Assembly: GCA_963746335.1 (NCBI GenBank)
Contig: CAVVAK010000004.1
Coordinates: forward strand, 530,825-594,824
Length of the DNA: 64,000 bases
Direction: 5' to 3'
Source of the DNA: an uncultured Actinomycetota bacterium
Lineage (GTDB): Bacteria > Actinomycetota > UBA4738 > HRBIN12
The notes under the pieces were generated by a model that worked only from the letters and a program-made list of their open reading frames with translations, made no database searches and was not told the DNA's origin. Shown here in pieces: positions 1 through 33,084 of this stretch (position 1 is the first letter of the stretch; each line of letters opens with the position of its first letter). A program made the position numbers and the translations under genes.

Positions 1-588
1 GTATGTGCCGAAGACCGGGAGGTGGAGCACGCGCCCCAGGAGTACACACTCGTCGAATCGGGGACTCTCGTACTCGTGGCACAGGATGGCGTCGCAGCCG
101 TGTCGGCGCAGCTCTCGAGCCACGGCAACGAGAGGCGTGGCCACGTAGGAGCTCACCGAGGAGACAACCGGCGATGTCAGCTCGAATCGATGTTGTGCAG
201 CACGGACCTTCCGATGTGCCCATGGGCTGGGGAAGAGGCAGACCGGGGCGCCCGTGGGTTCGTGGACGAACCGCTCGATCTCATCCGCTCTCGCCGAGGC
301 GAAGCACATGACGACACGAACGCCGGCGAGCTGCAGAGCCTGCACGTAGTTGAAGAGCCAACCGCCGGACAGCTCCGAACGGAACGTGTCGAGCGAGACA
401 CCGACCTTGTCCAACCAGTCCTCGATCCTGTCCCCCCCGCCGAAGAACGCGAGGGTGGGAGGAGTCGACGTCAGATCGGTCGACCTGACCGGCTCAGGAG
501 AGATGTCGGTCTGCACACGGGACAGCGTAGTGAGCCGGTTCGATGCACGGCTCCTCCACCCCCCAGATCCGACGGGAACAGCCTGCAC
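1..588 (-). CDS. glycosyltransferase (GT-B/GT4-like), N-terminal part; the 3' end runs off the window
   Basis: Absent from the ORF track because there is no stop inside the window. My minus-strand translation from GTG 588 (or GTG 516) reads ...TLAFFGGGDRIEDWLDKVGVSLDTFRSELSGGWLFNYVQALQLAGVRVVMCFAS...YVATPLVAVARELRRHGCDAILCHEYESPRFDECVLLGRVLHLPVFGTY. This looks like the N-terminal Rossmann half of a GT4-type enzyme. The + ORF 22..594 is its antisense shadow. Confidence 0.45.
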   Translation of the reverse strand, partial: MQAVPVGSGGWRSRASNRLTTLSRVQTDISPEPVRSTDLTSTPPTLAFFGGGDRIEDWLDKVGVSLDTFRSELSGGWLFNYVQALQLAGVRVVMCFASARADEIERFVHEPTGAPVCLFPSPWAHRKVRAAQHRFELTSPVVSSVSSYVATPLVAVARELRRHGCDAILCHEYESPRFDECVLLGRVLHLPVFGTY

Positions 589-626
589 CGGTGAGACGTC
601 TCGGTCGCTGACGGGAAGGGGCTCGG

Positions 627-2744
627 CTACTTGGCCTGGGCACTGATCACGTTGGACGGCTGGCTGTGGTTGCCTGCGTGGTCGAACGCGGAGACTCGAT
701 ACCAGTACTGGACCCTGCTCGCGGCGGTGAGGTCACTGTAGGACGTAGATGTGATCGTCGCGATGGACGTGAAGGGTCCAGAAGCGCCGGCGGTGCCCCG
801 CCAGACGATGTAGCCGGCGAGGCCACTTCCGCCAGCATCCGTTGACCCAGACCAGGAGAGGTTCACCTTGCCCTTGGCGGACGCTGCCTTGAGTCCGGAC
901 GGCGCGGTGGGGGACGTCGTATCCGGCGGTGCGGCGGTCGTCGCGGACGCGACCGGCGACGGCGCCGAGTCCCCACCGTCGCCCGTGGCCACCACTCGGT
1001 AGGAGTAGGTCGTACTCGCGGCGAGCCCCGTGTCGCTGTAGGAGGTGACCCCGGCGGCCGTGGTCGCCACCGGGCTCCACGTCGTCGTGTTGGTGGATCG
1101 CTCCACGCGGTACCCCGTCGCCTCTGTCACCGCGCTCCACGAGAGATCCACCCGGCTCGCCGAGACGGCCGTGGCCGTGAGCGAGGCCGGGGCCGGAGGC
1201 GGGGTCGGGGGCGGCGTGTTGGTCGTCGCGGAGGCGACCGGGGAGGGTGGTGAATCTCCCTCACCGTTCGTTGCCACCACCCGGTAGGAGTAGGGCGTAC
1301 TCGCGGCGAGGCCCGTGTCGCTGTAGGAGGTGACCCCCGCGGCCGGGCTCGCGATCGGGTTCCACGTTGCCGTATCGGTCGATCGCTCAACGCGGTACCC
1401 GGTCGCCTCTGTCACCGCGCTCCACGACAGATCCACCTGGCTCGTCGAGACGGCGGTGGCCGAGAGTGTGGCCGGGGCCGGAGGCGGACTCGGGGGCGGC
1501 GTGTTCGGGGTGAACACGACGTCGACCCAATAGTTCGTGTCGTGCTGCGGGGAGGGATCGCCGGGGATCGGGAACCCGTGGCCGGCACGGATCGCCCCGT
1601 TCCCGTTGATCGCGCCCTGGGATGGAAGTCGCAGGGGCGAGTTCACGACTTCGCGATCGCGGAAGTAGCCGACGTCCGCTGCGTAGCGACCCACCGGCGC
1701 GTAGTAAGACGCGATGTAGACCGTGTGTGCCTGCACCGGCACCGGCTGTGCGAACCTGACCTCTTGCCATCCACTCGAGGTTTCGTTGGTGAACGTCGCT
1801 TCACCCAACAACGATCCGGTCGCCGTCCAGAGACTCCCGATGTGAGTGCCGGTGTTGGCCGTGCCCTTGTAGAAGCGGACGCCGTCGATGAAACCGTCCT
1901 TCTCGGACCTGAACTTCACGCCGACCTCGACGGCCGCGGTGGAGGCGACCTGTGGCTGCGCGGGCGTGTCGCCCGGCCCCCAGACGCTGCAGGGACAGCT
2001 TCGGCTCGAGATCGGCGGAGGGACTTCCCGCATGCCGGCGAGCGTCGAGCTCCAGGCGGCCGCCATCTTGTCGTAGCCCCCCTGGTTCGGGTGGATGCCA
2101 TCGATCAGATCGGCTGTCGTGATCACCGGATACATGTCCAGGAACGAAACCTGTCTTCCCGCTGCCGCTTTGGCGGCCACGATCCCAGGGATCTCGGCGT
2201 TGTAGGCACGGGCGTCGGCGTCCAGCGCGGGATCCGCCAGCGGGGTGATCGACGCGACGACGAGTCGAGCGCTGGGTCTCGCATCCGTGATCAGGTCGAT
2301 GAGGGAGCTCAAGCGAGCCGGCGCAGCGGCGAGATCGAACTGCTGCAACACATCATTGGTTCCGATCTGGAGCAGAACGAACTCCGGCCGGAAATTCGTG
2401 ACGGAGGTCGGGGCCAGGGCAGCGAGTTGATCGATGCGGTAGCCCCGGTAACCCTCGTGATCCCGGTCGTAGAGGATCGGAGGCCCTGAGCGCTGAGAGC
2501 CGACCATGTCGGAGCTGTAGCGACCCACGACGAGGTTCTGCACGAGCGGAGGGCGATAGCCACCCCCACCGTTTCCTCCCGTGCCCCACGTGATGCTGTC
2601 CCCGAGTGGCATGATCCGGGTTGGGACCACGAACGAAGCAGCTTGAGCTGGCGAGGCAGCAAGCACGGCGAAAGAGGTCGCGAGCAGGAATACCAGCGTG
2701 GAGCGCGCCAACGCCCGTTGTCCGACCATCTTGATCGACGACAT
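627..2744 (-). CDS. secreted SGNH/GDSL hydrolase - DUF4082-like - 3x fibronectin type III protein
   Basis: Signal-like N-terminus (LVFLLATSFAVLAASPAQA). SGNH blocks are present: MPLGDSITWG, GTNDV, DGIHPN. The central region (GVKFRS..GVRFYKG..IASYYAP..NYWVDVVF) resembles DUF4082. Three C-terminal FN3 modules (LSWSAVTEATGYRVERS twice, LSWSGSTDAGGSGLAGYIVWR). Confidence 0.85.
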   Translation of the reverse strand: MSSIKMVGQRALARSTLVFLLATSFAVLAASPAQAASFVVPTRIMPLGDSITWGTGGNGGGGYRPPLVQNLVVGRYSSDMVGSQRSGPPILYDRDHEGYRGYRIDQLAALAPTSVTNFRPEFVLLQIGTNDVLQQFDLAAAPARLSSLIDLITDARPSARLVVASITPLADPALDADARAYNAEIPGIVAAKAAAGRQVSFLDMYPVITTADLIDGIHPNQGGYDKMAAAWSSTLAGMREVPPPISSRSCPCSVWGPGDTPAQPQVASTAAVEVGVKFRSEKDGFIDGVRFYKGTANTGTHIGSLWTATGSLLGEATFTNETSSGWQEVRFAQPVPVQAHTVYIASYYAPVGRYAADVGYFRDREVVNSPLRLPSQGAINGNGAIRAGHGFPIPGDPSPQHDTNYWVDVVFTPNTPPPSPPPAPATLSATAVSTSQVDLSWSAVTEATGYRVERSTDTATWNPIASPAAGVTSYSDTGLAASTPYSYRVVATNGEGDSPPSPVASATTNTPPPTPPPAPASLTATAVSASRVDLSWSAVTEATGYRVERSTNTTTWSPVATTAAGVTSYSDTGLAASTTYSYRVVATGDGGDSAPSPVASATTAAPPDTTSPTAPSGLKAASAKGKVNLSWSGSTDAGGSGLAGYIVWRGTAGASGPFTSIATITSTSYSDLTAASRVQYWYRVSAFDHAGNHSQPSNVISAQAK
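930..1499 (-). repeat. tandem duplication of a ~285-bp FN3-encoding unit (2 copies) inside the SGNH gene
   Basis: Amino acids 416-510 and 511-605 of the 705-aa protein align residue for residue (PPP(S/T)PPPAPA(T/S)L(S/T)ATAVS..VDLSWSAVTEATGYRVERST..GVTSYSDTGLAAST.YSYRVVAT). The DNA landmark GCGGCGTGTT recurs at 1211 and 1496, a period of 285. Confidence 0.85.
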
Positions 2745-2828: not shown

Positions 2829-3725
2829 TCAGGCGCGCGACCTCCTGGGAGCCCGATCTCTCATCCCGGCCAGGATGCCGGGCAGGAGTCCCCGAACCTC
2901 CCCCCGGCCCATCGCCACGAGCTGGGCATTCCCCGTCAGGAACCCTCGCAGCAGGAGCCACGGCGCTCGGACGAAGTCGCGAGCGGCGCGTCGAGCGATG
3001 AAGAGGTCGGCGCGGCGCAAATGCTTGCCGTAGAAGGCCCCCTGTCCGCGAGCGTAGCGCTCGTACAAGGCGGGAAGCATGTCGGTCGCTTGCCATGCGA
3101 GATGGGAGACGATGATGTCGGGGTCGTACACGATGGGCACGCCTGCCCGAAGGGCCCGATACGCCCAATCGTTGTCTTCCCCCGCGAGCCGGAGTGATGG
3201 GTGCTCGTCGAGATGGCCGATGCGCTCCAGCAAGGGGAGCGCGAAGGCCATGTTCGCCGGGAAGAGGACGTCTCGGTCGATCATCGGCCTTCGATAGACG
3301 GCGTGATCGAGCGAGGTCACGATCGTGAGGACGATGCCATCACCCTCAGGTTCGACCCTCCCGGTCAAGATCGAGCCGCTCACCTCCGGCAGACGGGAGG
3401 AGATCCTCTCCAACCAGCCCGTACCGACCCTGCAATCGTCATGGGTCGTCGCGACGAACGGCGTTCGGACACGTTCGAACCCACGGTTGGTGCCGGCGGC
3501 GATACCGGTCTCGCCGGATCGGAGGTGCGTGATCGGGAGGCCTCGGCCCTTCAGCTCATCAACCCACGTTGCCACGTCCGCGTTGGAGCCCTGATCCACG
3601 ATGATCAGTTCCGCCGGCCACATCGTTCCGCTCGCGATCGATCCGAGGCAGCCACGCAAGAGCGGTCGCCCGAGGGTCGGGATGACGACGCTGATGTCCT
3701 CGGCGACCGGCGGGATGTCACCCAT
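2829..3725 (-). CDS. glycosyltransferase family 2
   Basis: ISVVIPTLGRPLLRGCLGSI...IIVDQGS and a later GEDNDW block are typical GT-A/GT2. I chose ATG 3725 (MGDIPPVAEDISVV), which overlaps the upstream stop (3718) by 8 nt. The longer ORF-track N-terminus (to 4001) is Arg/Ser-rich overlap sequence. Confidence 0.8.
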   Translation of the reverse strand: MGDIPPVAEDISVVIPTLGRPLLRGCLGSIASGTMWPAELIIVDQGSNADVATWVDELKGRGLPITHLRSGETGIAAGTNRGFERVRTPFVATTHDDCRVGTGWLERISSRLPEVSGSILTGRVEPEGDGIVLTIVTSLDHAVYRRPMIDRDVLFPANMAFALPLLERIGHLDEHPSLRLAGEDNDWAYRALRAGVPIVYDPDIIVSHLAWQATDMLPALYERYARGQGAFYGKHLRRADLFIARRAARDFVRAPWLLLRGFLTGNAQLVAMGRGEVRGLLPGILAGMRDRAPRRSRA

Positions 3726-5169
3726 CGTTCTCCCATCCGGAGAGGAGATCGGAGAAGGAGAACACGCGATCGACATCCTGGGGATCGGGACACGAGCGAT
3801 CGTCCCAGGGTTCCCCGGCCAGCTTGAAACTGGCCCTTCTCCCGGAGTAGTAGTCGAGGGCATCTCGAGCCGCCCAGTCGTACACGAACTCGTGGAGCGC
3901 GAAGGCACCCCGTGGCGCCGGCTCGACCACCGTGCGTCGGACCCCACACACAGCGACCACCGCGTCGTCGGCGACCTCCTCGGCGATCCGCCTCGACGCA
4001 TAGGCCGTGAAGCTCGCGCTCTCGAGGCGGACCCAGACGCTCAAGCTCAGCGACAAGAGCGCTCCCGCCGCGAAGACTCCCACGACAGCACCCCACGATC
4101 GATAGCTCCGCCGAACCATGAGAGGACCGATCGTCGCGATCATCCCCGAGAGCACGAGCCAGGTGGGGGCGAAGAGCCTCGGGGACCCTTGATGCGGAAC
4201 GTTCAGGAACACCGGGATGTTGATCAGCGCGATGAGCCCGAGACCGGCGAGAAGGGTCCTCCATGCGCGGGTTCGGTCGCTCTCCGACGCCCCCGGCGTT
4301 GACAGGAGCATCGGACCGAGCCAGGAGCCCAGCAGGGCGCCGAGCGCGACGATGATCACGCTGGGAGGGAATGCCCACCGGACAGCCAGCGGGATCGAGT
4401 GGAACCCGAGACCGACAGCCGGGAACTCCACCAGGAATGCGGGGTCGCCGACCGCTCCCGCCACGCGTTCACCGAGCGTCAAGCGGAGCCGCGGATCACC
4501 CCCCGGCCACACGACGAAGGCGACCAGCAGCGCGGCGACCACGGCGATCGTGATGCCGAACGCTCGACGGCGATGTTCGGGCGGGGACGTCAACCACACG
4601 GCCAACGGCAGGGCGAGCAGGACCTGCTCGACCGACAGACCCGCTCCGGCCACGGCGAGAGCTGCCCAGACGTGCCGGCCGTTCCGGTGGAGCCGCAAGG
4701 CGGCGAGCGCCATGAGCAAGCCCAATGGCACGTGCATCGCCGCAGGCCACGATGCAGCCTCGGTACCGAGGGGCTGGAGGAGCCACAGCGCTGCCCCCAG
4801 CGAAGGCCACGCCCCCGGGACTCCGAGGTCCCGCAGCAGCCCTCGGAGGAGCACCGCGATCCCCAACGTCAGCAACAAGGGGATCGCGATCGCCACGCCG
4901 AACGGCAGATGCTGGCAGACCTCCGTCGTGATGACGATCTCCACGAGGTGCGCTCGACGCAGCGCACCGAGTCGTTCGAACGAATCGGCGAGGGTCGCCC
5001 CCAAGCCGGCCCGCTGCGGTTGGAGACAGTTGACGAAGTCGTCCGCGAGCGGCGCCCCGCGAAGGACGACCGGCAGGGAGATGGTCACGAATAGGATGGC
5101 GACGCCGATCAGCACGACCGTCCCGATCCGGATCGATCGTGCTTCCCCTGCCGGCTCGGGCGAGCTCAA
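3718..5169 (-). CDS. polytopic integral membrane protein, function unknown (polymerase or GT-C-like candidate)
   Basis: There are more than 10 hydrophobic segments after IRIGTVVLIGVAILFVTISLPVV. The ORF-track N-terminal 138 aa overlap the upstream GT2 and look non-coding. The proposed TTG start at 5169 forms a TTGA overlap with the stop at 5166. The start is uncertain. Confidence 0.6.
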   Translation of the reverse strand: MSSPEPAGEARSIRIGTVVLIGVAILFVTISLPVVLRGAPLADDFVNCLQPQRAGLGATLADSFERLGALRRAHLVEIVITTEVCQHLPFGVAIAIPLLLTLGIAVLLRGLLRDLGVPGAWPSLGAALWLLQPLGTEAASWPAAMHVPLGLLMALAALRLHRNGRHVWAALAVAGAGLSVEQVLLALPLAVWLTSPPEHRRRAFGITIAVVAALLVAFVVWPGGDPRLRLTLGERVAGAVGDPAFLVEFPAVGLGFHSIPLAVRWAFPPSVIIVALGALLGSWLGPMLLSTPGASESDRTRAWRTLLAGLGLIALINIPVFLNVPHQGSPRLFAPTWLVLSGMIATIGPLMVRRSYRSWGAVVGVFAAGALLSLSLSVWVRLESASFTAYASRRIAEEVADDAVVAVCGVRRTVVEPAPRGAFALHEFVYDWAARDALDYYSGRRASFKLAGEPWDDRSCPDPQDVDRVFSFSDLLSGWENDG

Positions 5170-6128
5170 CTCTCGTCGCACGGGCTCCCCTCGGCTCCCA
5201 CAAGGGCGTCGAGCCAGGCGCGGGCTTCGAGGATCCAGGGGTCGTGCTCGTTCGCCGGGTCGCCGAGCCGGGTCCGTCGGTTGGCGTAACCGGGCATCGA
5301 TGCGGCGACCACCACGCGCCCGATCGAACCGATGTCCCCGGCTCTGATGGCCCGCCCGTAGAGGCGAACCGCATCGGCTCGGCGGTCCTCCTGCAGGGCA
5401 CGCCATGCCGCCCACCGAAGATGCCTGACCCGATCCACGGTGATCCCGTGTCGCTCCGCCACGACATCCAACTGCCGGAGCATCGCGGCCGTGTCTCCGG
5501 CCGCGTTCTGTCGATGGTAGGAGACGGCCACGAGCGGGCTGGAGACCCAGTCTGGTGGCCCCGCGCGCGCCAAGCGGATCCACATGTCCCAGTCTTCGCT
5601 GCTCGTGAGCCCTGGATCGAAGGAGCCCGCTTCCGACAACGTGTCGACATGAACGACGACGCTCGAAGCGCTCCCCGGAACGGAGTTGTGGCGCTCGAGC
5701 TGCCGCACGACCTCGTCCGGAGGCGGTGGGGGACCGCCCGCGAAGATCCTCAGGTTGCCGTCGACCATCACGTCACCGGTGTAGGACCACATCCGTCCGC
5801 CCTTCGCCATGACGTCGAGCTGACGGGTGAGCTTGGTCGGCGCCCAGACATCGTCATCGTCCAGGAACGCGATCCAGCGGCCCTTCGCATCCGCGATGCC
5901 GACGTTGCGGGCTGCGCTCACTCCCCCCGACACAGCTCGCTTCAGGGATCGGATCCGTGGGTCCGAGATGCTCGTCACCATGCGCTCCGTCGCATCCGTC
6001 GATGCGTCGTCGACGATCAGGACCTCGAGATCGACGTCTCGCTGCGCCAACACGCTCCGCACCGCGATCTCGAGCCGCCGGCAACGGTTGCGGGTGGGGA
6101 TCACCACGCTCACGTTCGGTTCGCTCAA
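5166..6128 (-). CDS. glycosyltransferase family 2 (paralogue A of a four-member set)
   Basis: VSVVIPTRNRCRRLEIAVRSVLAQRDVDLEVLIVDDASTDAT, DDDD, SSEDWDMWIRLARAGPPDWV. The TTG start at 6128 gives a TTGA overlap with the stop of the deacetylase gene at 6125. Confidence 0.8.
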   Translation of the reverse strand: MSEPNVSVVIPTRNRCRRLEIAVRSVLAQRDVDLEVLIVDDASTDATERMVTSISDPRIRSLKRAVSGGVSAARNVGIADAKGRWIAFLDDDDVWAPTKLTRQLDVMAKGGRMWSYTGDVMVDGNLRIFAGGPPPPPDEVVRQLERHNSVPGSASSVVVHVDTLSEAGSFDPGLTSSEDWDMWIRLARAGPPDWVSSPLVAVSYHRQNAAGDTAAMLRQLDVVAERHGITVDRVRHLRWAAWRALQEDRRADAVRLYGRAIRAGDIGSIGRVVVAASMPGYANRRTRLGDPANEHDPWILEARAWLDALVGAEGSPCDES

Positions 6129-7069
6129 CCCTGGGGCCCGCGGTTCAGTCTGATGGCGGCGCCCACCAAGAGATCGTCCACCGCGAGGCGACCTGGCTCC
6201 CACCGTCCCAACAGGTAGGGGTCGTCGCGGGGATGCATCGGACGGGGCTGGCCCGTCCACGCGGCCTCATACCCAGCGTCCCGGATCCTGTTCGCGGTTC
6301 GCCGGTCCGCTTTACCGTGGGGATAGGCGAAATGGAGGAGCGGATGACCGACGAGGGTCTCCAGCTCCTTCCGTCCCTGCGCCAACGCCGCATCGAGCGC
6401 CCCATCATCCAGTCGAGTGAGGATCTCGTGGCGCAGGGTGTGGAAGCCGATGGCCATGTCCGCCGCGACCAGCGCCTCGATCCCGGAGCGATCGAGGTTG
6501 GGCGATGGGTCGTGGCTCTCCTCTTCGATGGATCTCTGCAGCGCGGGGTCGTTCTCGCATGCGGTCACGAGCGACTGCGCCCCTTCGCCTCGTCTGCCGA
6601 CGAGACGGCTGACTTCGTCCATCCCGCGAGTATCGATCAGCCGCTCGAGGATCTCGAACCAGTACGGACCGAGACCGACCAACGACCGCCCCGAGAGGAA
6701 GAACGTCGCTGGCGCACCGCGGTCGCGCAGGATCGGCAGGGCGTGATCGACATGGGTGACGAAGTCGTCGTCGAACGTCACGGCGAACCTCGGCCTCGCG
6801 CTCCGGCGCGCCTCCTGAAGGAGTGCTCGCAGCGGAACGATCTCGCCGACCTCTCCGAGCGCATCGAGTTGGCGACCCAAGACGTTCGCGGAGACGGACG
6901 GCACGATCTGGCCCGCGGGGCGTCCGTCCTGGTCGACCCGGTGGTAGACGAGCACCAGGCTCCGACCACGGAGCGCGCCGATCCTTCGAACCACCTCCCC
7001 GACGGGGGATGCTCGGAGGACGCGCTTGACCAAGGCATGGAACCCACCGCCGGCCGGCGGCGGGTTCAT
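6125..7069 (-). CDS. polysaccharide deacetylase (CE4/NodB-like)
   Basis: LVLVYHRV...FAVTFDDDFVTHVDHALPILRDRGAPATFFLSG...HTLRH...AYPHG are NodB-homology motifs. ATGA overlap with the upstream gene at 7066-7069. Confidence 0.85.
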   Translation of the reverse strand: MNPPPAGGGFHALVKRVLRASPVGEVVRRIGALRGRSLVLVYHRVDQDGRPAGQIVPSVSANVLGRQLDALGEVGEIVPLRALLQEARRSARPRFAVTFDDDFVTHVDHALPILRDRGAPATFFLSGRSLVGLGPYWFEILERLIDTRGMDEVSRLVGRRGEGAQSLVTACENDPALQRSIEEESHDPSPNLDRSGIEALVAADMAIGFHTLRHEILTRLDDGALDAALAQGRKELETLVGHPLLHFAYPHGKADRRTANRIRDAGYEAAWTGQPRPMHPRDDPYLLGRWEPGRLAVDDLLVGAAIRLNRGPQG

Positions 7070-8046
7070 GACGCCGGGGAGAGGCCGGCCGTCATCTCGG
7101 AGAGCTCATCGAGCCACACCTGCGCCTCGGCGGCCCATCCCTCGTCCCGCTCCCCGCGGATGAGGCGGAACACCCGGTCGGATCCGACGGCGGGATGCAC
7201 GAGCGCCACGGCCGCCCTGCCTACCGATCGGAGGTCGCCGATCGCGACCGCTCGAGCGTAGTGACGCACGGCGCGGCCACGGTCACCGGCGCGAAGACAG
7301 GTCCAGGCCGCTCGGCGGTGCATCGCAGCGCGGTCCACGGGGATACCGTACCTGGCGGCCAAGAGCTCGGGTTCGTGGATGATGGCGTTCGTCTCGACCG
7401 GGATGTTGCTGTGGTGGAACCGATACGCCACGAGCGGGTGAGGAACGTACGCGGGCGGGCCACTCCGCGCCAGTCTGATCCACATATCCCAGTCCTCCGT
7501 GCGCCGCAGCTCCGGATCGAATGGACCCGCCTCCGCGAGAACGTCGGCGCGCACCATCACGTTGGACGCACCGGTCGGCACAGGGTTGTAGCGGGGTAGG
7601 GCTTCCATGACCTCCTCGGGGCCGGGGGGACGGGAGGCGCTGAGGACCCGCAACGCTCGGTCGACGTCGACGTCGCCCGCGTAGACCCACGTCCGGTCGG
7701 CCGCCGTGACCGCCTCGAGCTGCTGGATCAACTTGTCCGGTGCCCAGAGATCGTCGTCGTCGAGGAACGCGATCCACTCCCCCTTCGCTTCAGCGATCCC
7801 GCGGTTCCTCGAAGCGCTCACGCCGCTCTGTGAAGGCTGCCGAAGCAGTCGTACCTCGCCGACGTCGGAGACGGCCTGAGCCGTGTCATCCGTCGACGCG
7901 TCGTCCACGACGATGACCTCGACGTCCACGCGGCGCTGCTGGAGCGCGGTGAACACGGCGAGCCTCAGCAGCTGTCGCCGGTTCCGGGTCGGAACGACGA
8001 TCGAGACGTCAGTCATCGGCACCAAGGTACTGGGAGGCATTACCAC
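7066..8046 (-). CDS. glycosyltransferase family 2 (paralogue B)
   Basis: VSIVVPTRNRRQLLRLAVFTALQQRRVDVEVIVVDDASTDDT, FLDDDD, RTEDWDMWIRLARSGPPAYVPHPLVAYRFH. The start could instead be ATG 8016 (MTDVSIVV). Confidence 0.85.
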   Translation of the reverse strand: MVMPPSTLVPMTDVSIVVPTRNRRQLLRLAVFTALQQRRVDVEVIVVDDASTDDTAQAVSDVGEVRLLRQPSQSGVSASRNRGIAEAKGEWIAFLDDDDLWAPDKLIQQLEAVTAADRTWVYAGDVDVDRALRVLSASRPPGPEEVMEALPRYNPVPTGASNVMVRADVLAEAGPFDPELRRTEDWDMWIRLARSGPPAYVPHPLVAYRFHHSNIPVETNAIIHEPELLAARYGIPVDRAAMHRRAAWTCLRAGDRGRAVRHYARAVAIGDLRSVGRAAVALVHPAVGSDRVFRLIRGERDEGWAAEAQVWLDELSEMTAGLSPAS

Positions 8047-8063
8047 CTGGGTATCCTCCGGCC

Positions 8064-8987
8064 GTGCGTCAGCTGCTGAAGATCTCGGCGGAGATGAGAG
8101 CGAGCCGACCGGTCTTCATCGTGGGAGAGGCGCGAAGCGGCACGAGCATCCTGTATCGGACGCTGCAGAAGCACCCGTCCTTCCGGCCCCTGCAGCCGGA
8201 CCTGACGGAAACGGAGATCTTCTCGCATCTCCGACGGACCTTCCTGTTCGGGAAGTCGTACCCGAAGTCCTTGTCGAAGTTCATGCTTCACGACGAGGTG
8301 CGGCATGAGCAGTTCCTCCGATCGATCCGCGTGATCCGCCTCGTGAGCCTGCTGTCCGTCCCGCTCAATCTGGTCGTTCGTGATCGGTCGGACCTCGTCT
8401 GGTACGGCGAACTCAACCACCTGCTCCTGCGGAGCTACTTCTTCCACGCGTGGCGGGCGAGGGGGTGCCGCAGACTCGTCGAGAAGACCCCGACGAACAC
8501 CGCGAACCTGCCTCGTCTCGAGAAGGCCTTCCCCGACGCTCGATTCCTATATGTCCACCGACACCCGATCGACGTCTTCACCTCGTACCGACGCCGTGCG
8601 AGGGACGATCCCCAAGCGGCCTGGGCCGCACGGCTCTCGCCCGAAGACTTCTGCACGACGTACGCAGCATCGACCTATCGGGTGCTCGGATGGGTCGCGG
8701 AACGCGCGAACCTCATGATGGTGCGGTATGAGGCGTTCACCTCGGATCCGGAGAGGGAGCTGAGAAGCATCTGCGGATCCCTCGGGGAGCCGTTCGACCC
8801 TGAGATGGTCCGGGAGCCCAACCCCGATCGCGGCCGGTGGCGGGGCGACCCCCACCTGTGGGGCGAGATCGTCCCGGTCACCAAGGACTGGCGCGAGCTG
8901 ATCGAGCCGGCCGAGGTCGACGTCATCCAGACCGCTCTTGCCGACGTGATGCGTCGGCTCGGCTACGAGCGTTATGCGTCTCCATGA
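8064..8987 (+). CDS. sulfotransferase family protein
   Basis: PVFIVGEARSGTSILYRTL resembles the 5'-PSB (PAPS phosphate-binding) loop. RLVEKTPTN...LYVHRHPIDVFTSY resembles the 3'-PB region of cytosolic-type sulfotransferases. Confidence 0.8.
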   Translation: MRQLLKISAEMRASRPVFIVGEARSGTSILYRTLQKHPSFRPLQPDLTETEIFSHLRRTFLFGKSYPKSLSKFMLHDEVRHEQFLRSIRVIRLVSLLSVPLNLVVRDRSDLVWYGELNHLLLRSYFFHAWRARGCRRLVEKTPTNTANLPRLEKAFPDARFLYVHRHPIDVFTSYRRRARDDPQAAWAARLSPEDFCTTYAASTYRVLGWVAERANLMMVRYEAFTSDPERELRSICGSLGEPFDPEMVREPNPDRGRWRGDPHLWGEIVPVTKDWRELIEPAEVDVIQTALADVMRRLGYERYASP

Positions 8988-9970
8988 TGGGCGAAGCCCA
9001 TCATGGAGAGCTCCGAAAGCCATGAGGACGCTTGCTGCCGCCACGCGATCTGCGCGAGAGGTGGCCGAGCGGGGATCGCGGGGAAGCGCCGCCGTGCCCG
9101 CCCTCTCGCCAGTGACCACCCGGCGCGCAGGACCTGCCTCGCCTCCCCCTGCAGGGCTGCCCGGACGAGATGTGACAGCGCCTCCCGTCGTCTCCCGGAG
9201 AGGAGACACTTGTGCGCCAGGTAGTGATGCAGGGCCCCTCGGTCGATCGTCATCCGATGCTTCTCCTCGAGGATGGCCGCCTCACGAAGGATGAGTCCGA
9301 TGTCGAGCGACGACTGTCCGGAGTGGATCCGATAGCCGACGAGGGGCTCGTCCGCGAACGCGGGGGGGCCGATGCGTGCCAGTCGGATCCACAGGTCCCA
9401 GTCCGCGAGGTTCACCAGACCGAGATCGAACACACCCGCTCGGGCGAGCGTCGCTCGCTCCACCAGCACCCCAGAACAGCCTCCTGGGATCACGCTCCAG
9501 CCCGGGAGTCGCGCCATGACCTCCCTCGGCACGGGGGGTGGAGTGCCGCCGGTGATCCGGCCGGCCTCGTCGATCTTGACGGCGCCCGCATAGACCCACG
9601 CCGAACGAGCATCTTCGGCTGCCTGGAGCTGGCGAGCCAGCTTCGTCGGCGCCCAGAGATCGTCGTCGTCCAAGAAGGCGATCCATCCACCGCGTGCTTC
9701 CTCGATACCTGTGTTGCGGGCCGCGCTGACTCCCTGGGCCTGGTCGTGGCGAAGGAGACGGACGCGAGGATCGCCCACCGAACGCACGGTCGCGGCCGTG
9801 TCGTCGGTCGATCCGTCGTCCACGACGACGATCTCCAGGTCGATGTCTCGCTGCCAGAGCGCACTTCGCAACGTCCTCATCAGCAGCTGGCTCCGATCGT
9901 GCGTCGGGATGACCACCGAGACGAGGGCGCTCGAGTCGGTCACCTCACACCCCGTCCGACCGCTCGGCAT
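8972..9970 (-). CDS. glycosyltransferase family 2 (paralogue C)
   Basis: VSVVIPTHDRSQLLMRTLRSALWQRDIDLEIVVVDDGSTDDT, FLDDDD, NLADWDLWIRLARIGPPAF. I chose ATG 9970; GTG 9943, just after the upstream stop, is an alternative. The ORF-track N-terminus (to 10279) overlaps the sulfotransferase gene. Confidence 0.8.
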   Translation of the reverse strand: MPSGRTGCEVTDSSALVSVVIPTHDRSQLLMRTLRSALWQRDIDLEIVVVDDGSTDDTAATVRSVGDPRVRLLRHDQAQGVSAARNTGIEEARGGWIAFLDDDDLWAPTKLARQLQAAEDARSAWVYAGAVKIDEAGRITGGTPPPVPREVMARLPGWSVIPGGCSGVLVERATLARAGVFDLGLVNLADWDLWIRLARIGPPAFADEPLVGYRIHSGQSSLDIGLILREAAILEEKHRMTIDRGALHHYLAHKCLLSGRRREALSHLVRAALQGEARQVLRAGWSLARGRARRRFPAIPARPPLAQIAWRQQASSWLSELSMMGFAHHGDA

Positions 9971-10943
9971 CACGATCGGTCCGCGCGAGACCCAGACGTT
10001 CCCGGAACGGCCGGGTGGTCGTTCCGATCGTCGTTCGCGCCCGATATCGCAACCTTCTGATGGCCGTGCGAGACGTCCAGGTCCCGTCTCGAGCGCGGTG
10101 GATCGCGATGTCATACGCGGTTCGGATGGGCTCGGCGATGCTGTCGTACCCGAGACGTCGAAGCTGCCGGCCGGCGATCCACTCGAATCGTTCATGCTGT
10201 GCTCGATCCCATGATCGCCACCGCTCGATGGGGTCGAAGTCCTCGCCCCGGGGAACGGGGTCCCAGTGGACGGAGTCATGATCGGGTCCGAAGTAGGTGG
10301 ATGAACCGCGAACAGGAAGTCGTTCGGCCGCCGCGAAGTCGAAATCCTTCTCGTCCAGGTCCAGGAAGCGGAGGAGGGGCGTGATTGAGCCGTGCAGATC
10401 CCGGATCAGATCCTCGTATCGAACGAGCAGGTACCGTCCCTCGTGCTCCCCGTGGTCGGTCGAGGTGAACCGGAGGATCTCGTCGGCGGCCGTGGCCCAA
10501 CTGCGAGCTGCCCGTTCGAACTCCCATCCGAACGTCGCCATGCATGACTGGGTGACCGACCGCCCGTCGCGGACGAGTATCACCAGTCGTGCGCGAGGGA
10601 AGAACGTGAAGAAGCGGTCGATGTGGCGAACGCTCGGGCTCTTCGTGAGCAGACGACGGTCCCGCTCATCCCAGAGGAACGAGAGAAGTCCATCGCCGAT
10701 CGAAGAGGAGAGCTCGTCGGCGAGATCATCCGGGAACTCGCCCCACCGGGGGTCCCATGAGGCCTCGACGGCTCCGACGAACTTCGCGAGATGGTCCGAA
10801 TGTTCCAGGAACAGGTCCTCGCGCACCGGGGGTCTCGCGGGAACGCATGCAGGATGGAGACGAAGGAGATCCCATAGATGATTCGTCCCGCTCCGCGGCA
10901 AGATACCGAGGATGAAGATGGGATCGGGAACCTTGGCGTCCAC
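9945..10943 (-). CDS. sulfotransferase family protein
   Basis: IFILGILPRSGTNHLWDLL (PSB loop) and LLTKSPS...LVILVRDGRSVTQS (3'-PB-like). The size and layout match sulfotransferase domain proteins. Confidence 0.8.
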   Translation of the reverse strand: MDAKVPDPIFILGILPRSGTNHLWDLLRLHPACVPARPPVREDLFLEHSDHLAKFVGAVEASWDPRWGEFPDDLADELSSSIGDGLLSFLWDERDRRLLTKSPSVRHIDRFFTFFPRARLVILVRDGRSVTQSCMATFGWEFERAARSWATAADEILRFTSTDHGEHEGRYLLVRYEDLIRDLHGSITPLLRFLDLDEKDFDFAAAERLPVRGSSTYFGPDHDSVHWDPVPRGEDFDPIERWRSWDRAQHERFEWIAGRQLRRLGYDSIAEPIRTAYDIAIHRARDGTWTSRTAIRRLRYRARTTIGTTTRPFRERLGLARTDRDAERSDGV

Positions 10944-11008
10944 GAGGACCGAGTTGTCTCCTCGCCCGGAGGGGTACGGATGGCTCCGCGCATGCTAACG
11001 GGTCGGCG

Positions 11009-12019
11009 TTGTGGCGGAACCTCCGACGACCGCGACGGGCCGCTCCACGATCGCCCTGGGGACTCTTCGTGACCGCGGTATCCGTGGTGCTTCCCACCCA
11101 CGACCGGAAAGAGTGGTTGCGACTCGCGCTGGCAACCGTTCTCTGGCAGCAGGGGGTGACCGTCGACGCGATCGTCGTCGACGACGGGTCGACCGACGGA
11201 ACCGCGGACATGGTGAGGAGCCTGGACGACCCGAGGGTCAGGGTCCTGCGGCACGATCGCGCGCTGGGAGTCAGCGTGTCACGCAATCACGGCGCCGACG
11301 AAGCGCTCCATGGATGGGTCGCGTTCCTGGACGACGACGATCTGTGGGCTCCGGATAAGTTGCAACGGCAGATCGACGCGGCCGAGCTCGGAGGCCTGGC
11401 TTGGGCGTACACGGGGTCGGTGAACGTGGGCGCGGACCTGGAGCTCGTCGGAGGAGCCCCTCCCCCCTCCCCTGAGAGGGTTGCTCGGAACATCTTCCAC
11501 TTCAACGCCGTCCCCGGTGGCGGGTCCAACGTCGTCGTTCGTCGAGACACGCTCCGGCGGGTCGGTCATTTCGACCACAGGCTCCGGAACACGGAGGACT
11601 GGGAGATGTGGATCCGTCTCACCGAGATCGGCCCGCCGGCATGGGTACCCGATCCTCTCCTCGCCTATCGGGTTCACCGGTTGAACGCATCCCTCGACAT
11701 CGCCGAGATCCTCGCGGGCGTGGAACTGATCGAACGGAACCATGGAACCGATGTCGACCGCGGGGTCCTTCACCGCTGGATCGCGGAGTCCTGTCTCCGG
11801 GCAGGTCGGCGCGGCGCGGCACTCAAGCATCTCGCGATCGCCGCCGGGCGAGGAGAGATCGTCGGTGTCGCGCGTGACCTCGGCGAGATCGTCCGTCGGC
11901 GGCTCGCACGCCGAGGCCTCCTCCCGCACCGACGTGGGCCGAGGCATCCGGATTGGGTCCTCCGCGCCGAACCGTGGCTCTCCAGGGTGCGCGCGATGGA
12001 TACCGAGCAGGAGACGTAG
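11009..12019 (+). CDS. glycosyltransferase family 2 (paralogue D)
   Basis: VSVVLPTHDRKEWLRLALATVLWQQGVTVDAIVVDDGSTDGT, FLDDDD, NTEDWEMWIRLTEIGPPAWVPDPLLAYRVH. Confidence 0.8.
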   Translation: MWRNLRRPRRAAPRSPWGLFVTAVSVVLPTHDRKEWLRLALATVLWQQGVTVDAIVVDDGSTDGTADMVRSLDDPRVRVLRHDRALGVSVSRNHGADEALHGWVAFLDDDDLWAPDKLQRQIDAAELGGLAWAYTGSVNVGADLELVGGAPPPSPERVARNIFHFNAVPGGGSNVVVRRDTLRRVGHFDHRLRNTEDWEMWIRLTEIGPPAWVPDPLLAYRVHRLNASLDIAEILAGVELIERNHGTDVDRGVLHRWIAESCLRAGRRGAALKHLAIAAGRGEIVGVARDLGEIVRRRLARRGLLPHRRGPRHPDWVLRAEPWLSRVRAMDTEQET

Positions 12020-12030
12020 CCGGAGGCGTC

Positions 12031-13311
12031 CTATCCCGATCCTGTAGCGACCGCCCCGGCCGCCGCGTTCGTCTCGGTCGCTCCTGCTCCCCGGGATTTC
12101 CGCTCCAAGGCGGGCCGTTCCACGTAGCGGTACGTCAAGGCCGCGAGCGCCACACCGATGACTCCGAGGATGAAGAGGTTCGCCCAGAATCCCGATTCCC
12201 CGGCGAACGTCATGCCGTGTTGATCCGCCCACCTCTGGAGGGGCTCGTGCCAGAGGAACAGGCTGTAGGAGACCAGACCGATCGCGACCAACACCCGCGT
12301 GCGCAGGATCCGTGTGACGATCGACGTCGAGAGATCCGCCGACGGGAGAACGACGACCGCGAGAAGCAACATCGCGGCGACGCCCGTCAGGGAGTCATAG
12401 AGGACGGCGCCCTGGTACGACGGGATGGCTCCCCGATCGACGAGAAGCACCGTCACGCACACGAGTGCCGCGAGGAACGTGTAGACCGGCACCCGCCACC
12501 ACCTCGGCAGCTCGAGGACACCGTCCTCGATGCCCACCATCACGATGGCAATGATCATCCCGTAGGCGAACAGATCGCAGTAGTTCAGGAAGCTTCTGAC
12601 CAGGATCGAGTGGGCCGTTCCGCTGTCGGGAGGCAGGAGGGTGGACGTCACCCCTGCCGTGACGAGGCTCACCCCGACGAGGAGCAGGGGCGGAGCCAGA
12701 ACCGCGAGGGTCCTGCCTTTCCTCGTCGCGGTTCGGGCCGAGGCGAAGGCGGCCAGCATCCCCAGGAACGGAAGCACGAGATAGAAGACGACCTCGACGG
12801 CAAGGGACCACACGGGGGCGATACCCGTATCGCGGGAATCGGCGAAATAGTTGTGGATCAGCGCCGCGTTCCGGAGCAGGACGGTGGGTTGGTCGACCAG
12901 TCTCCCGAGCTGGAGCTCCGTCGGAGAGACACGGACCAGTGCTGCGGGGAGGATGACCGCGGTCACGATCAGGATCACCCAATAGGCGGGGAGGATCCGC
13001 AGGGCTCGGTTCCGCAGATAGGTCCGGAGGTCCTGGAGCGGGCGTTCGTTGAGCACCCGGGACACGATCGGGCGGTAGAGAAGGAATCCCGACAACACGA
13101 AGAACAGCGTCACGCCGACGCGGAGATGGGGAAGGACGAAGCGACTCAGGTAGCCCAGGTTCGCGGCACTGCCGCCTGCCGCCGTGTAGAGCCAGTTGTG
13201 ATAGACGAGCACGGCGAGCACGGCGATCGCACGGAACCCCTCCACCCCGGCGAGACGCGTGGTCGTGCCGTCCGCCCTCGTGGGCACACGCGCGGGTGAC
13301 GCGAGGCTCAT
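12031..13311 (-). CDS. acyltransferase family 3 (membrane O-acyl/acetyltransferase)
   Basis: GVEGFRAIAVLAVLVYH at the N-terminus, followed by about 10 TM segments, is typical of Acyl_transf_3. ATGA overlap with the upstream gene at 13308-13311. Confidence 0.85.
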   Translation of the reverse strand: MSLASPARVPTRADGTTTRLAGVEGFRAIAVLAVLVYHNWLYTAAGGSAANLGYLSRFVLPHLRVGVTLFFVLSGFLLYRPIVSRVLNERPLQDLRTYLRNRALRILPAYWVILIVTAVILPAALVRVSPTELQLGRLVDQPTVLLRNAALIHNYFADSRDTGIAPVWSLAVEVVFYLVLPFLGMLAAFASARTATRKGRTLAVLAPPLLLVGVSLVTAGVTSTLLPPDSGTAHSILVRSFLNYCDLFAYGMIIAIVMVGIEDGVLELPRWWRVPVYTFLAALVCVTVLLVDRGAIPSYQGAVLYDSLTGVAAMLLLAVVVLPSADLSTSIVTRILRTRVLVAIGLVSYSLFLWHEPLQRWADQHGMTFAGESGFWANLFILGVIGVALAALTYRYVERPALERKSRGAGATETNAAAGAVATGSG

Positions 13312-14414
13312 GGCGCGTCGACGTTGGACGGGTCGGCGAGCCGAGGCGAAGCCACTCCGGGCTGCCGGTCGAAGAAGTCGCCGCTCTCGTCAGGCTCCGT
13401 TCGCGGGAACGACGGCCAGCCTTCGTCATCGGTGGATGGCGCGTCGCCCGCGGCAGCGCTCACCGGAGGCAGCGCGAGATACGCGAGGCGCCTGACCTCC
13501 CGCCGATTGCGGCACACGGAGTCGAGGATCAAGCCTGCCGTGAGACAGATGAACGCGACGATCTGGATCGAGGCGCTCAGCACCGCGGTCGGCAATCGAA
13601 GCACCAACCCGGTCGCGAGGAACTCCTCCACCACGACCGCGCCGAGCGCCACCGCGATGGTCGTGAGCGCAAGGGCGATCGCCGTGAAGAAGCGCAGAGG
13701 CCGCATCTCCTTGAACAGCAGGACCGCGGCGAGAGTGATCCGGATCCCGTCGCGGAGCGTTCGGAGCTTGCGCGCGGAATCCACGTGGCGCGCTCGGTAC
13801 GAGGTGGTCACCTCCGCGTACGGCAACCCGATCTCCGCGGTGTGCGCCGTGAGCTCCGTCTCGATCTCGAACCCGGTGAATCGGACCGGGAAGGTCTTCA
13901 CGAATCTGCGCGACAGCACGCGATATCCGGAGAAGACGTCCGTGAACCGTGTGCCGAACAACATCTTGAGGATCCTGTTGAACAGCCGGTTGCCCACGAC
14001 GTGACCACGTGGGAACGCGCTCCCTTCGGGACGACGGCAGCCGACGACCATGTCCAGGTTCTGATCGACGAGCAATCGCACCATGGCCGGGGAGGCGTCG
14101 GGGTCATACGTGCCGTCACCATCGGCCATCACGTAGACGTCAGCCTCGATGTCGGCGAACATGCGGCAGACGACACTGCCCTTCCCTCGCCGTGGCTCGC
14201 TCCGAACGAGGGCGCCCGCAGCCCTGGCCCGTTCGGCCGTGGCATCGGTCGAGGCGTTGTCGTACACGAAGATCCGGGCGCTCGGAAGCGCCGAACGGAA
14301 CCCGGCGACGACCTCGGCGATGGTGCGTTCCTCGTCTTGACAGGGCAGGAGCACCGCGACGCGCAGCTCGCCGCTCGGGCGGCCGTTCGGACGAGGCGTG
14401 GGGGCGTCAGTCAC
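13308..14414 (-). CDS. polyprenyl-phosphate glycosyltransferase (GtrB/ArnC/DPM1-like GT2 with C-terminal TM helices)
   Basis: VAVLLPCQDEERTIAEVV...VYDNASTDATAE...RGKGSVV...MADGDGTYD, then two C-terminal TM helices (FFTAIALALTTIAVALGAVVV, AVLSASIQIVAFICLTAGLIL). GTG 14414 overlaps the upstream stop by 8 nt. Confidence 0.85.
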   Translation of the reverse strand: MTDAPTPRPNGRPSGELRVAVLLPCQDEERTIAEVVAGFRSALPSARIFVYDNASTDATAERARAAGALVRSEPRRGKGSVVCRMFADIEADVYVMADGDGTYDPDASPAMVRLLVDQNLDMVVGCRRPEGSAFPRGHVVGNRLFNRILKMLFGTRFTDVFSGYRVLSRRFVKTFPVRFTGFEIETELTAHTAEIGLPYAEVTTSYRARHVDSARKLRTLRDGIRITLAAVLLFKEMRPLRFFTAIALALTTIAVALGAVVVEEFLATGLVLRLPTAVLSASIQIVAFICLTAGLILDSVCRNRREVRRLAYLALPPVSAAAGDAPSTDDEGWPSFPRTEPDESGDFFDRQPGVASPRLADPSNVDAP

Positions 14415-19528: not shown

Positions 19529-19649
19529 CTCGTACGAGCTCCTGGGCGCGAGGGGACTCGGCGCGGGGTTGAGACGGTATCTGAGCGGCGTCGGCTTGCC
19601 CAGACCGGATCGGCGCGGATGCATCGCCGGCCGTTGCTACGGTATCCGC

Positions 19650-30854: not shown

Positions 30855-31135
30855 CTCGGAAGCTGGCGCCAGGGCTCGGCGATCTTGGACGAGGTCATGC
30901 CCTCAGATCTGCCAGTTCGTCCATGTGCGACTGACTGAGAGATCTCTAGGCGGCTGCTGACGAAACGCGACGAGCTCAAGGAGCGAGAAGTTCCTCGAGG
31001 AGTGTCATACGCCTCGTTCTCGGTCACCCCTCTCGATCTGAAGGCGAGTGGTAGGTTTGTTTCATTGATGCTCGCCCCAGTTTCCGATTGCTCCACGTGT
31101 GCTCCCGCGACGACACATGAGAAGCCGCGTGCAGC

Positions 31136-33044: not shown

Positions 33045-33084
33045 TTCTTGAGGGGTCACCCGAAGCGCAATGCGACTCGGAACC

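Follow-up and report, generated by a model that had tools for sequence, protein, structure and literature searches.

The window analysed here, a stretch of 64,000 nucleotides (C4:530825-594824) from the 2.58-Mb assembly of an uncultured Actinomycetota bacterium (10 contigs, 79% complete), carries at positions 2829-12019 a compact block of genes for glycosyltransferases of family GT2, two sulfotransferase-like proteins (ST1 and ST2), a CE4 polysaccharide deacetylase and a polytopic membrane protein, X. Three WhiB genes assign the genome to Actinomycetota, Corynebacterium being the only one of 14 control genomes with a match. The reading that we favour, with a probability of around 0.6, is that this block forms the central part of an accessory cassette, shared by horizontal transfer, for the assembly of a sulfated, exported glycan. 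The cassette is old and is not a gene family amplified on the spot, and it probably serves as a mobile set of genes for making a sulfated sugar polymer of the cell surface.

Gene Content and Conserved Order of the Cassette

An earlier note on this DNA, made from the sequence alone, had placed four GT2 genes, two sulfotransferases and a deacetylase in this part of the window; the seven reading frames translate cleanly, and all were confirmed by their Pfam matches. Five genes on the minus strand, in the order GT2_2-CE4-GT2_1-X-GT2', are chained by stop/start overlaps (ATGA at 7066-7069, TTGA at 6125-6128 and again at 5166-5169, and ATGGGTGA at 3718-3725), and X and GT2' are translationally coupled. 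They encode the glycosyltransferase GT2_2 (7066..8046; 316-326 aa depending on the start; PF00535 5.9e-29), the NodB-type CE4 deacetylase (6125..7069; PF01522 4.9e-18), GT2_1 (5166..6128; 320 aa; PF00535 1e-28), X (3718..5169; around 483 aa, with a small C-terminal soluble domain and no Pfam family) and GT2' (2829..3725; around 298 aa; PF00535 2.3e-12), which lies outside the seven-member GT2 subfamily described below and gave no BLAST match to its members at 1e-5. GT2_3 (8972..9970, minus strand; 323-332 aa, starting at ATG 9970 or GTG 9943; PF00535 5.7e-33) is directly downstream of ST2 (9945..10943, minus strand; 332 aa; PF13469 7.2e-23), from which GT2_4 (11009..12019, plus strand; PF00535 3e-27) diverges. 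The start of GT2_4 is more likely the GTG at 11069, which gives a protein of around 316 aa and a spacer of 125 bp; its orthologue in the metagenome contig L102 was called at 315 aa. ST1 (8064..8987, plus strand; 307 aa; PF13469 1.8e-29) and GT2_3 are convergent and share a short 3' overlap. As regards a heparan-sulfate-type logic, in which de-N-acetylation and N-sulfation of one GlcN residue are coupled, CE4 and the sulfotransferases are separate, non-adjacent genes, CE4 standing between GT2_2 and GT2_1, and ST2 beside GT2_3 and GT2_4. The three minus-strand GT2 genes between positions 5760 and 9733 are spaced by 1900 and 1909 bp, because each is paired with one modifying gene of around 0.95 kb (CE4, ST1 or ST2).

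Relatives were collected by a motif scan, with the two peptide stretches best conserved in the family, over genomes that each represented a different species, and 496 were confirmed (loci and genomes are cited below by L and G numbers). The closest ones belong to metagenome-assembled genomes (MAGs) of Acidobacteriota/Vicinamibacteria and of other Actinomycetota, to one Micromonosporaceae MAG and to one MAG labelled Alphaproteobacteria. Two gene blocks, GT2_2-CE4-GT2_1-X-GT2' and ST2-GT2_3 divergent from GT2_4, are conserved across phyla and recur in Actinomycetota, Acidobacteriota/Vicinamibacteria and the MAG labelled Alphaproteobacteria. Many of the relative loci combine several of these GT2s with an ST2-type sulfotransferase and a CE4. 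The order in L004, for example, is GT2(=GT2_2)-CE4-GT2(=GT2_1)-X-GT2'-GT2(=GT2_4)-ST2, L010 has ST2-GT2_3 divergent from GT2_4, and L102 is collinear with the window, ST1 included (83% identity). Orthologues of X, 52-65% identical, occupy the same position in L004, L006, L007, L008, L010, L012, L102, L103 and L104, and those of GT2', 58-62% identical, come directly after X in L004, L006, L007, L008, L010, L012 and L103; X is always followed by a 298-aa GT2 of this other type. Three loci, L005, L008 and L013, carry CE4 and no sulfotransferase in the DNA examined.

A Narrow Subfamily of Tailed GT2 Glycosyltransferases

The four GT2 proteins of the window match PF00535 (Glycos_transf_2) at E values of 1e-27 to 6e-33, and their scores of 96-115 bits far exceed the cut-off of 23.3. 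Full-length alignment of the copies to GT2_1 showed 39-46% identity, and comparisons of copy against copy by BLASTP gave E values of 1e-56 to 1e-91, far past chance. The elements said earlier to be common to the four (VS.V.PT, DDDD.WAP.KL, DW..WIRL, GPP, H, the DR tail and a C-terminal W) are all invariant. The four-fold expansion that had been proposed is real as far as these copies go, and the true count is seven: a six-frame BLAST search of the whole assembly found seven members, all within 17 kb (C4:525.5-542.8 kb), three of them at C4:525563-530059, that is, 0.8-5.3 kb before the start of the window and beside a second CE4 deacetylase.

The DXD (DDDD) and D-W motifs are invariant in the seven paralogues and in an alignment of 41 family members. 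Since the DXD and the D-W motif of the catalytic region are kept, all seven copies look catalytically competent by their sequences, and this retention supports the proposal that they are linkage-specific paralogous transferases. Searched with a profile of the seven copies, the solved proteins gave as best match both domains of the E. coli K4 chondroitin polymerase (K4CP; 3e-39), followed by PglI/AvpGT and, lower in the list, heparosan synthase; the counterparts of DDDD and D-W in K4CP are DSDD and D-Y-D. The named equivalogs of NCBIfam gave for the GT2s and the sulfotransferases only sub-threshold matches (MftF, EpsD, TuaG and NoeE), NoeE matching just the P-loop of ST1 with 23 bits against a cut-off of 500.

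An AlphaFold2 model of GT2_2 (pLDDT 93, pTM 0.91) consists of a GT-A domain (residues 1-200) and a six-helix tail (209-309), and we call the subfamily tailed GT2s after it. A Foldseek search of this model against the Protein Data Bank (PDB) returned 513 matches at E <= 1e-3, and the best 50 listed were all GT-A glycosyltransferases, with 6p61 (TMt 0.90, rmsd 2.2), AvpGT, TarP, WrtF and K4CP among the structures matched. For the helical tail Foldseek found no solved counterpart, full-length TM-scores being around 0.6 with high rmsd. The tail alone, searched against 1.84 billion cluster representatives, matched 75 proteins, which indicates that the subfamily is narrow; in the full-length proteins of around 300-330 aa the match sits at the C-terminal end, and many other matches are short fragments. 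KfoC, the K4 chondroitin polymerase itself (PDB 2z86/2z87), and other GT-A enzymes of family GT2 whose acceptors are lipid- or polymer-linked (PglI/AvpGT, TarP and WrtF) have in common with the tailed GT2s the GT-A fold, the DXD motif and the D-W/D-Y at the position of the catalytic base. KfoC, however, is a bifunctional polymerase, whereas the tailed GT2s are single-domain proteins of around 320 aa with a six-helix tail that lacks a solved counterpart.

Two Sulfotransferase Families Associated with the Tailed GT2s

Both sulfotransferase-like proteins score well above the cut-off of 27 bits for Sulfotransfer_3 (PF13469), ST1 with 104 and ST2 with 82.4 bits. In BLAST they have in common only the loop that binds the 5'-phosphosulfate group (5'-PSB; 39% identity over 41 aa), so they represent two separate subfamilies and not paralogues at the BLAST level. 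ST1 has 316 homologues at E <= 1e-10, and the best 120 of the 316 are 54-99% identical and around 280-350 aa long. Alignment of 18 ST1 homologues revealed the invariant motifs PVFI.GEARSGTS (5'-PSB loop), EKTPTN and HRHP.D...SY.RR, the last one corresponding to the site that binds the 3'-phosphate (3'-PB). Among ST2 orthologues, K(S/T)PS, LVRDGRSV.QS and VRYEDL are invariant in 8 rows and PRSGTN is conserved in 7, the row of L040 being without the N-terminal part.

The best PDB match of the ST1 family profile was the CurM sulfotransferase (4gbm; 1.6e-12), with tyrosylprotein and cytosolic sulfotransferases next and with these motifs aligned. The PSB loops align to PRSGS of CurM, and the K-(S/T)-P and 3'-PB motifs to its DKSPTY and VRHPYSVIES. 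Where CurM has P-E-L-H, ST1 has a conserved E-T (E49/T50) and ST2 a conserved R-E-D-L-F, in a region where the HMMER alignment is weak. The residues for binding of 3'-phosphoadenosine 5'-phosphosulfate (PAPS), the sulfate donor, whose lack on a proper alignment the earlier note had named as refuting its reading, are present and conserved in both families.

The genomic contexts of both families point to a glycan. Orthologues of ST2 (45-68% identity) adjoin tailed GT2s in L004, L006, L007, L009, L010, L012, L040, L102, L104 and G015, and in at least 10 loci, from at least 3 phyla, a tailed GT2 gene is the immediate neighbour of this gene. Homologues of ST1 were found together with tailed GT2s and X in 6 of 7 contexts (L102, L103, L104, L105, L111 and L112). 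ST1 behaves as a variable insert, with a presence/absence polymorphism within the genus.

Some further observations concern the sulfotransferase genes in general. In L103 a called gene of 463 aa (7958-9349, minus strand) joins an N-terminal GT2 fragment (residues 1-96) to an ST2-like segment (211-342) and adjoins a truncated tailed GT2 of 248 aa; it reflects either a frameshift, a gene fusion or a misassembly of the contig. A third Sulfotransfer_3 copy of the window's genome is at C5:108401-109108. Among 31 species genomes of the order, 27 have Sulfotransfer_3 proteins, with up to 13 matches per genome and often in clusters (e.g., G021:C79 and G019:C6). As these occur with or without the cassette, Sulfotransfer_3 was rejected as a marker correlated with it.

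Supply of PAPS

The earlier note had reported no PAPS-synthesis genes in the window and had proposed to search the rest of the genome for cysDN and cysC. No APS kinase (adenosine 5'-phosphosulfate kinase, CysC) is indeed encoded in the window, and the search of the genome gave one stand-alone cysC, on contig C6 (203 bits; TIGR00455 209.5 against a cut-off of 138.7), and neither CysD nor CysN. A CysN-CysC fusion was considered, since a frame of 620-647 aa surrounds the APS kinase, and rejected, as this frame contains no GTPase domain; it is thus an artefact of high GC, and cysC stands alone. CysD/CysN was likewise rejected as the route of this lineage, being found in none of the 31 genomes; the lineage has the Sat type of ATP sulfurylase. 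APS kinase, present in 29 of the 31 relatives with or without the cassette, was discarded as a cassette-correlated marker.

The CysH of this genome scores as the thioredoxin-dependent APS-reductase type and is found beside sulfite reductase and CysG; two cysH genes of this type were seen, at C1:198293-198379 (cut by the contig end) and at C4:616854-617702, around 22 kb past the end of the window. By the branch-point logic known from mycobacteria, a cell with an APS-type CysH does not need APS kinase for the synthesis of cysteine, which leaves CysC free to serve sulfation.

The strongest link to PAPS is the presence of genes for its synthesis in two related cassettes. In L103 a cysD-cysN-cysC cluster (4239-6932) is embedded in the cassette, its neighbours being a GT2 gene and two genes for sulfotransferases, and in L040 a frame at the contig edge (3-1262) gives matches to both CysN and CysC. 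The CysC proteins of the two loci share 74% identity, even though the sources are labelled differently. Together with the PAPS-binding motifs, these genes strengthen the earlier proposal of a sulfated repeat unit, which is plausible and still an inference.

Deacetylase, Membrane Protein X and Exporter

The CE4 protein matches Polysacc_deac_1 with 65.7 bits (cut-off 23.1), and the motifs that hold the Asp-His-His metal triad and the catalytic Asp, T-F-D-D and H-T-x-x-H, show no variation among 8 orthologues and paralogues. Its nearest solved entry is 4wcj, titled 'Polysaccharide deacetylase', and no signal peptide was evident when the N-terminus was read directly.

The AlphaFold2 model of X (pLDDT 74, pTM 0.76) is all-helical, with around 13 long helices. 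The top 10 Foldseek matches in the PDB were all PglB/STT3 oligosaccharyltransferases, and these matches are weak (E 4e-3 to 6e-2, TM 0.34-0.40). Having in mind that they are weak and that the model is of medium confidence, we classify X as GT-C-like only tentatively.

Genes for a Wzm/Wzt-type ABC exporter are located 9-11 kb upstream of the window. They code for an ABC2_membrane permease (4.3e-19) and an ABC_tran ATPase with a Wzt_C domain that scores 22.6 bits, below the cut-off of 30.4. In L111, Wzm and Wzt (Wzt_C) genes directly abut the GT2/ST genes. Neither Wzx nor Wzy was found among the genes from C4:509 kb to window position 26 kb, and the only Wzy_C gene (35667-37139) belongs to a separate locus of lower GC. 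No LCP ligase is encoded near the locus, all four LCP genes being on other contigs; wall attachment through a local LCP ligase was therefore rejected, and a "wall" polysaccharide cannot be claimed.

Proposed Function and Competing Explanations

In the mechanism that we propose, each GT2 paralogue would be responsible for one particular sugar or linkage of a glycan carried on polyprenyl phosphate at the cytoplasmic face of the membrane, and CE4, being without a signal peptide, would remove an N-acetyl group. Cytoplasmic ST1 and ST2 would then move sulfate from PAPS to sugar positions before export, with ST1 as a strain-variable add-on, and the PAPS would be provided by the Sat ATP sulfurylase and the CysC APS kinase that are core to the lineage. 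The sulfated chain would leave through the Wzm/Wzt (Wzt_C) ABC exporter, and outside the cell GT-C-type enzymes (X and GT87/MptA-like proteins), an O-acyltransferase and an SGNH esterase may modify it. The product may be wall-linked, capsular or free, or an oligosaccharide transferred by X.

Several points weigh against this proposal. ATP sulfurylase, whether Sat or CysD/CysN, was not found in the 79%-complete assembly; Sat is present in 27 of the 31 relatives and in 16 of the 17 high-quality genomes, and its absence here is best explained by the missing 21% of the genome. APS kinase and Sulfotransfer_3 are common across the order, so that the capacity for PAPS is not specific to the cassette, and the ST1 homologue of L110 is outside any GT2 cassette (1 of the 7 contexts). 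The exporter is inferred from proximity only, with a Wzz/BY-kinase and a separate Wzy locus nearby, and the possible GT-C nature of X leans on weak Foldseek matches to a medium-confidence model. Some of the taxonomic labels of the MAGs could be binning errors, but L005, L007 and L012 are on contigs of 0.37-1.4 Mb. The sulfated glycan, the ST families and the tailed GT2s are known here as predictions from genes.

The best of the alternatives, which we nevertheless regard as unlikely, is that a glycan is made and the ST-like proteins act on something else, such as a lipid, a menaquinone-like cofactor, a small molecule or a protein, or that they decorate a glycolipid or a protein-linked oligosaccharide instead of a polymer. 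The characterised actinobacterial sulfotransferases (mycobacterial Stf) act on glycolipids (PMC8205485), and the nearest solved relatives, the sulfotransferase of CurM and TPST, act on polyketide intermediates and on protein tyrosine, respectively. The L110 homologue without GT2 neighbours and the resemblance of X to oligosaccharyltransferases would also suit this explanation, and a set of seven single-domain GT2s would suit the building of a long oligosaccharide of defined structure no less than that of a repeat unit. Against it stand the position of ST2 beside tailed GT2s in so many loci and phyla and the six ST1 contexts within such cassettes, while a polymer is indicated by the Wzm/Wzt pair of the locus, with its carbohydrate-binding Wzt_C domain, and by the genes there for a Wzz-type protein, a UDP-sugar dehydrogenase and a transferase of the WecG/TagA family.

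Much less probable is that the ST homologues have lost their activity or taken on another role, and that the glycan made is a common polysaccharide bearing no sulfate. ATP sulfurylase missing from the assembly, the dispensability of ST1 in G015 (a same-genus genome described below) and a catalytic base that was not assigned with certainty would agree with such a loss. Yet the 5'-PSB, 3'-PB and K-(S/T)-P motifs are kept, and mostly invariant, in diverged orthologues of both families, PAPS-synthesis genes are found in or beside two related cassettes, and Sat and CysC are core in the order.

Origin and Distribution of the Cassette

The favoured proposal of a horizontally shared cassette for a sulfated glycan also concerns the origin of the GT2 copies, which the earlier note had attributed to local duplication and had proposed to examine by a phylogeny with database homologues. 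In a maximum-likelihood tree of 51 full-length members built with IQ-TREE (supports as UFBoot/SH-aLRT), each of the four GT2s of the window falls in a different orthologue group together with proteins of other phyla or MAGs, the outcome that the earlier note had named as refuting a local duplication. GT2_2 is sister to that of the Acidobacteriota locus L004 (100/95), and the GT2_1 orthogroup holds Vicinamibacteria L005 and G009 (99/94). GT2_3 groups with L010 (100/98) inside a mixed clade of Acidobacteriota and Micromonosporaceae (99/96), and GT2_4 also groups with L010 (98/94), the clade around them containing 8 Acidobacteriota proteins (100/99). A tree constrained to unite the four window copies with their orthologues from the same genus was worse by 176 units of log-likelihood (-176 lnL), with p = 3e-5 in the approximately unbiased (AU) test; the group tested had been named after a quick tree, so this p is somewhat optimistic, and the margin is large. 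At the DNA level the copies are 68-77% alike in their best-conserved segments, with no near-identical tracts. The tree and the AU test, with a gene order kept across phyla, do not support duplication in situ; the GT2 paralogues are old, and the block was moved or kept as a unit.

That the copies arose in place, by tandem duplication and divergence in this lineage, is hence the least credible of the alternatives, as their adjacency and single architecture, the period of around 1.9 kb of a GT2 plus one modifying gene, a weak pairing of the upstream copies b and c (96/6) and lineage-specific duplications within the GT2_4 orthogroup in Acidobacteriota loci are what one would expect from it, but the window copies are 50-60% identical to proteins of other phyla and only 39-51% to their neighbours, a clade made up of the genus's own copies fails the AU test, the operon order is common to several phyla and the DNA bears no trace of recent copying.

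Within the genus the tailed GT2 family was found in 2 of 18 species genomes, so the cassette is accessory; G015 has five copies, and G009 has two, on a 5-kb contig. The G015 locus is collinear with the window, with 87-95% protein identity in the flanks and a GT2_1 copy that is 91% identical. ST1 is missing there, the orthologues of GT2_2 and GT2_3 being adjacent (L099 = G015:C10, 15681-17874), and the three upstream GT2 copies are replaced by a single divergent one. The GT2_3/ST2/GT2_4 block of G015 is only 73-79% identical, and this difference from its flanks suggests a recombinational replacement of the module. Such mosaic patterns of identity are usual for surface-glycan loci. The third-position GC of the cassette genes (5166-12019) is 0.75-0.82 versus 0.85-0.89 in the housekeeping genes at 42-64 kb; this is a crude measure, and it fits either a foreign origin or low expression.

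Genes Surrounding the Core

Positions 1-26 kb of the window have a GC of 66-69%. The window starts within a GT4 glycosyltransferase gene, whose 3' part occupies 1..732 of the minus strand (whole gene C4:530039-531556; Glyco_trans_1_4 6.6e-31 plus Glycos_transf_1 for the whole reading frame); homologues 48-57% identical adjoin the cassette in L040, L009, L010, G015 and L102. The last gene of the minus-strand string (627..2744) codes by its Pfam matches for a secreted-type GDSL/SGNH esterase with DUF4082 and fn3 domains, and the collinear L102 has a 706-aa gene with the same domains at this position. Before the window start there are also the second CE4 deacetylase, a methyltransferase, the ABC-2 permease and the ABC ATPase with its Wzt_C domain, together with a Wzz/BY-kinase-type protein, a UDP-sugar dehydrogenase, an epimerase, a WecG/TagA-family transferase and a Bac_transf initiating transferase.

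Downstream of the core, an Acyl_transf_3 membrane O-acyltransferase (12031..13311, minus strand; PF01757 1.8e-26) has its counterpart at the same position in L102, and it is accompanied by GT2-methyltransferase fusions, GT87/MptA-like GT-C proteins, a UbiA-type prenyl-phosphate transferase and an epimerase/dehydratase. The GT2 genes of the window outside the tailed subfamily are at 2829-3725 (GT2'), 13308-14627 and 18020-19624. The region at 26-42 kb is a separate Wzy-type locus of lower GC, in which genes for an FkbM methyltransferase, GT4s, Wzy_C, an APH-like kinase and a DegT aminotransferase (29997-42185) were seen, and no sulfotransferase.

Comparison with Known Sulfated Glycan Systems

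Rhizobial sulfated surface glycans and Nod factors are among the established sulfated products of bacteria. The Nod-factor pathway, NodC-NodB-NodH with NodPQ, uses a GT2, a cytoplasmic CE4 and a PAPS-dependent sulfotransferase, with genes for PAPS synthesis in some of the loci. Its enzyme logic is the same as that of the cassette (a GT2, a NodB-type CE4 and a sulfotransferase). Nod factors, however, are short lipo-chitooligosaccharides made by one processive GT2, whereas the cassette has seven soluble GT2s of non-processive type and polymer-export genes, and no NodA-type acyltransferase.

Gene clusters for sulfated bacterial polysaccharides are already known, such as those of synechan (PMC8205485) and of a Vibrio capsular polysaccharide (CPS; PMC11641403). 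Synechan is the only one of the cases compared for which both the genetics and the sulfated product are available (PMC8205485). Its xss cluster in Synechocystis sp. PCC 6803 resembles the cassette in combining eight glycosyltransferases and two sulfotransferases of distinct subfamilies in one cluster, and sulfation is presumed to take place on the lipid-linked unit in the cytoplasm (PMC8205485). In contrast to the cassette, xss is Wzx/Wzy-dependent and is on a cyanobacterial plasmid; the cassette has no Wzx/Wzy and has a Wzm/Wzt ABC exporter in its locus. It differs also in that its transferases are old paralogues of one tailed GT2 subfamily, accompanied by CE4 and a GT-C-like membrane protein, and in that it is known from genes alone.

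The CPS cluster of Vibrio sp. KMM 8419 is an ABC-dependent glycan locus with sulfotransferases and its own dedicated copy of cysNDC (PMC11641403), a combination like that of L103 and L040, and it has been called a hallmark of the synthesis of sulfated polysaccharides (PMC11641403). The Vibrio locus is of the Gram-negative Kps export type and the structure of its CPS has been solved (PMC11641403), while the window's own locus is without cysDN; the Vibrio glycosyltransferases, by the names given in the paper, are of other kinds (RfaB, BcbE and others).

The nearest actinomycete case is wps-1 of Actinoplanes missouriensis (PMC13390465). The statement of the earlier note that it was aware of no sulfated actinobacterial wall locus is dated, since wps-1 was predicted in 2026, although "wall" is a term that we do not claim. 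Like the cassette, wps-1 includes two sulfotransferases of different families, for a predicted sulfated exopolysaccharide (EPS; PMC13390465). Its knock-outs give a phenotype, the sulfation being chemically unverified (PMC13390465). It differs in being Wzx/Wzy-dependent and in having a GH26 enzyme, a kinase-like protein and a methyltransferase, and by its description it contains no expanded GT2 family, CE4 or X (PMC13390465). By domain content (Wzy_C, APH-like kinase, FkbM methyltransferase and GT4), the locus at 30-42 kb of the window is nearer to wps-1 than the cassette is. The combination of multi-copy tailed GT2s, CE4 and X is not in the synechan and Vibrio clusters, as compared by the descriptions in the papers. 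Our literature search found no description of this cassette, an absence that is no proof.

What the Cassette May Mean

A UDP-sugar dehydrogenase in the locus and the likeness of the tailed GT2s to chondroitin polymerase only hint at uronic acid. A bolder and rather doubtful reading takes the product as a heteropolysaccharide that contains uronic acid, is sulfated and has lost part of its N-acetyl groups, in other words a bacterial polymer resembling glycosaminoglycans (GAGs). It would be made in the cytoplasm by single-domain GT2s related to chondroitin polymerase and exported by an ABC transporter, and the cassette would spread among soil Actinomycetota, Acidobacteriota and Proteobacteria. 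Sulfated GAG-like material is reportedly a repeated finding in the extracellular polymeric substances of environmental biofilms. If this bolder reading were true, the cassette would be a genetic source for that material, and the order of this MAG, with Sulfotransfer_3 in 27 of the 31 genomes, would be a major unrecognised producer of sulfated glycans.

To our knowledge, sulfated polysaccharides are central in animals and algae, and the bacterial cases come mainly from cyanobacteria and a few marine Gram-negatives, with a single prediction, of 2026, in the actinomycetes. The cassette adds a defined, compact gene set kept across phyla (the tailed GT2 orthogroups, CE4, X, GT2', ST1 and ST2), with ST families that have hundreds of environmental members and no characterised representative, and with a link to PAPS synthesis. 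The evolutionary result matters by itself, as adjacent look-alike genes need not mean recent local duplication here. If the product is sulfated, the cassette would help to track down soil organisms that make sulfated glycans and would supply glycan sulfotransferases for biotechnological use.

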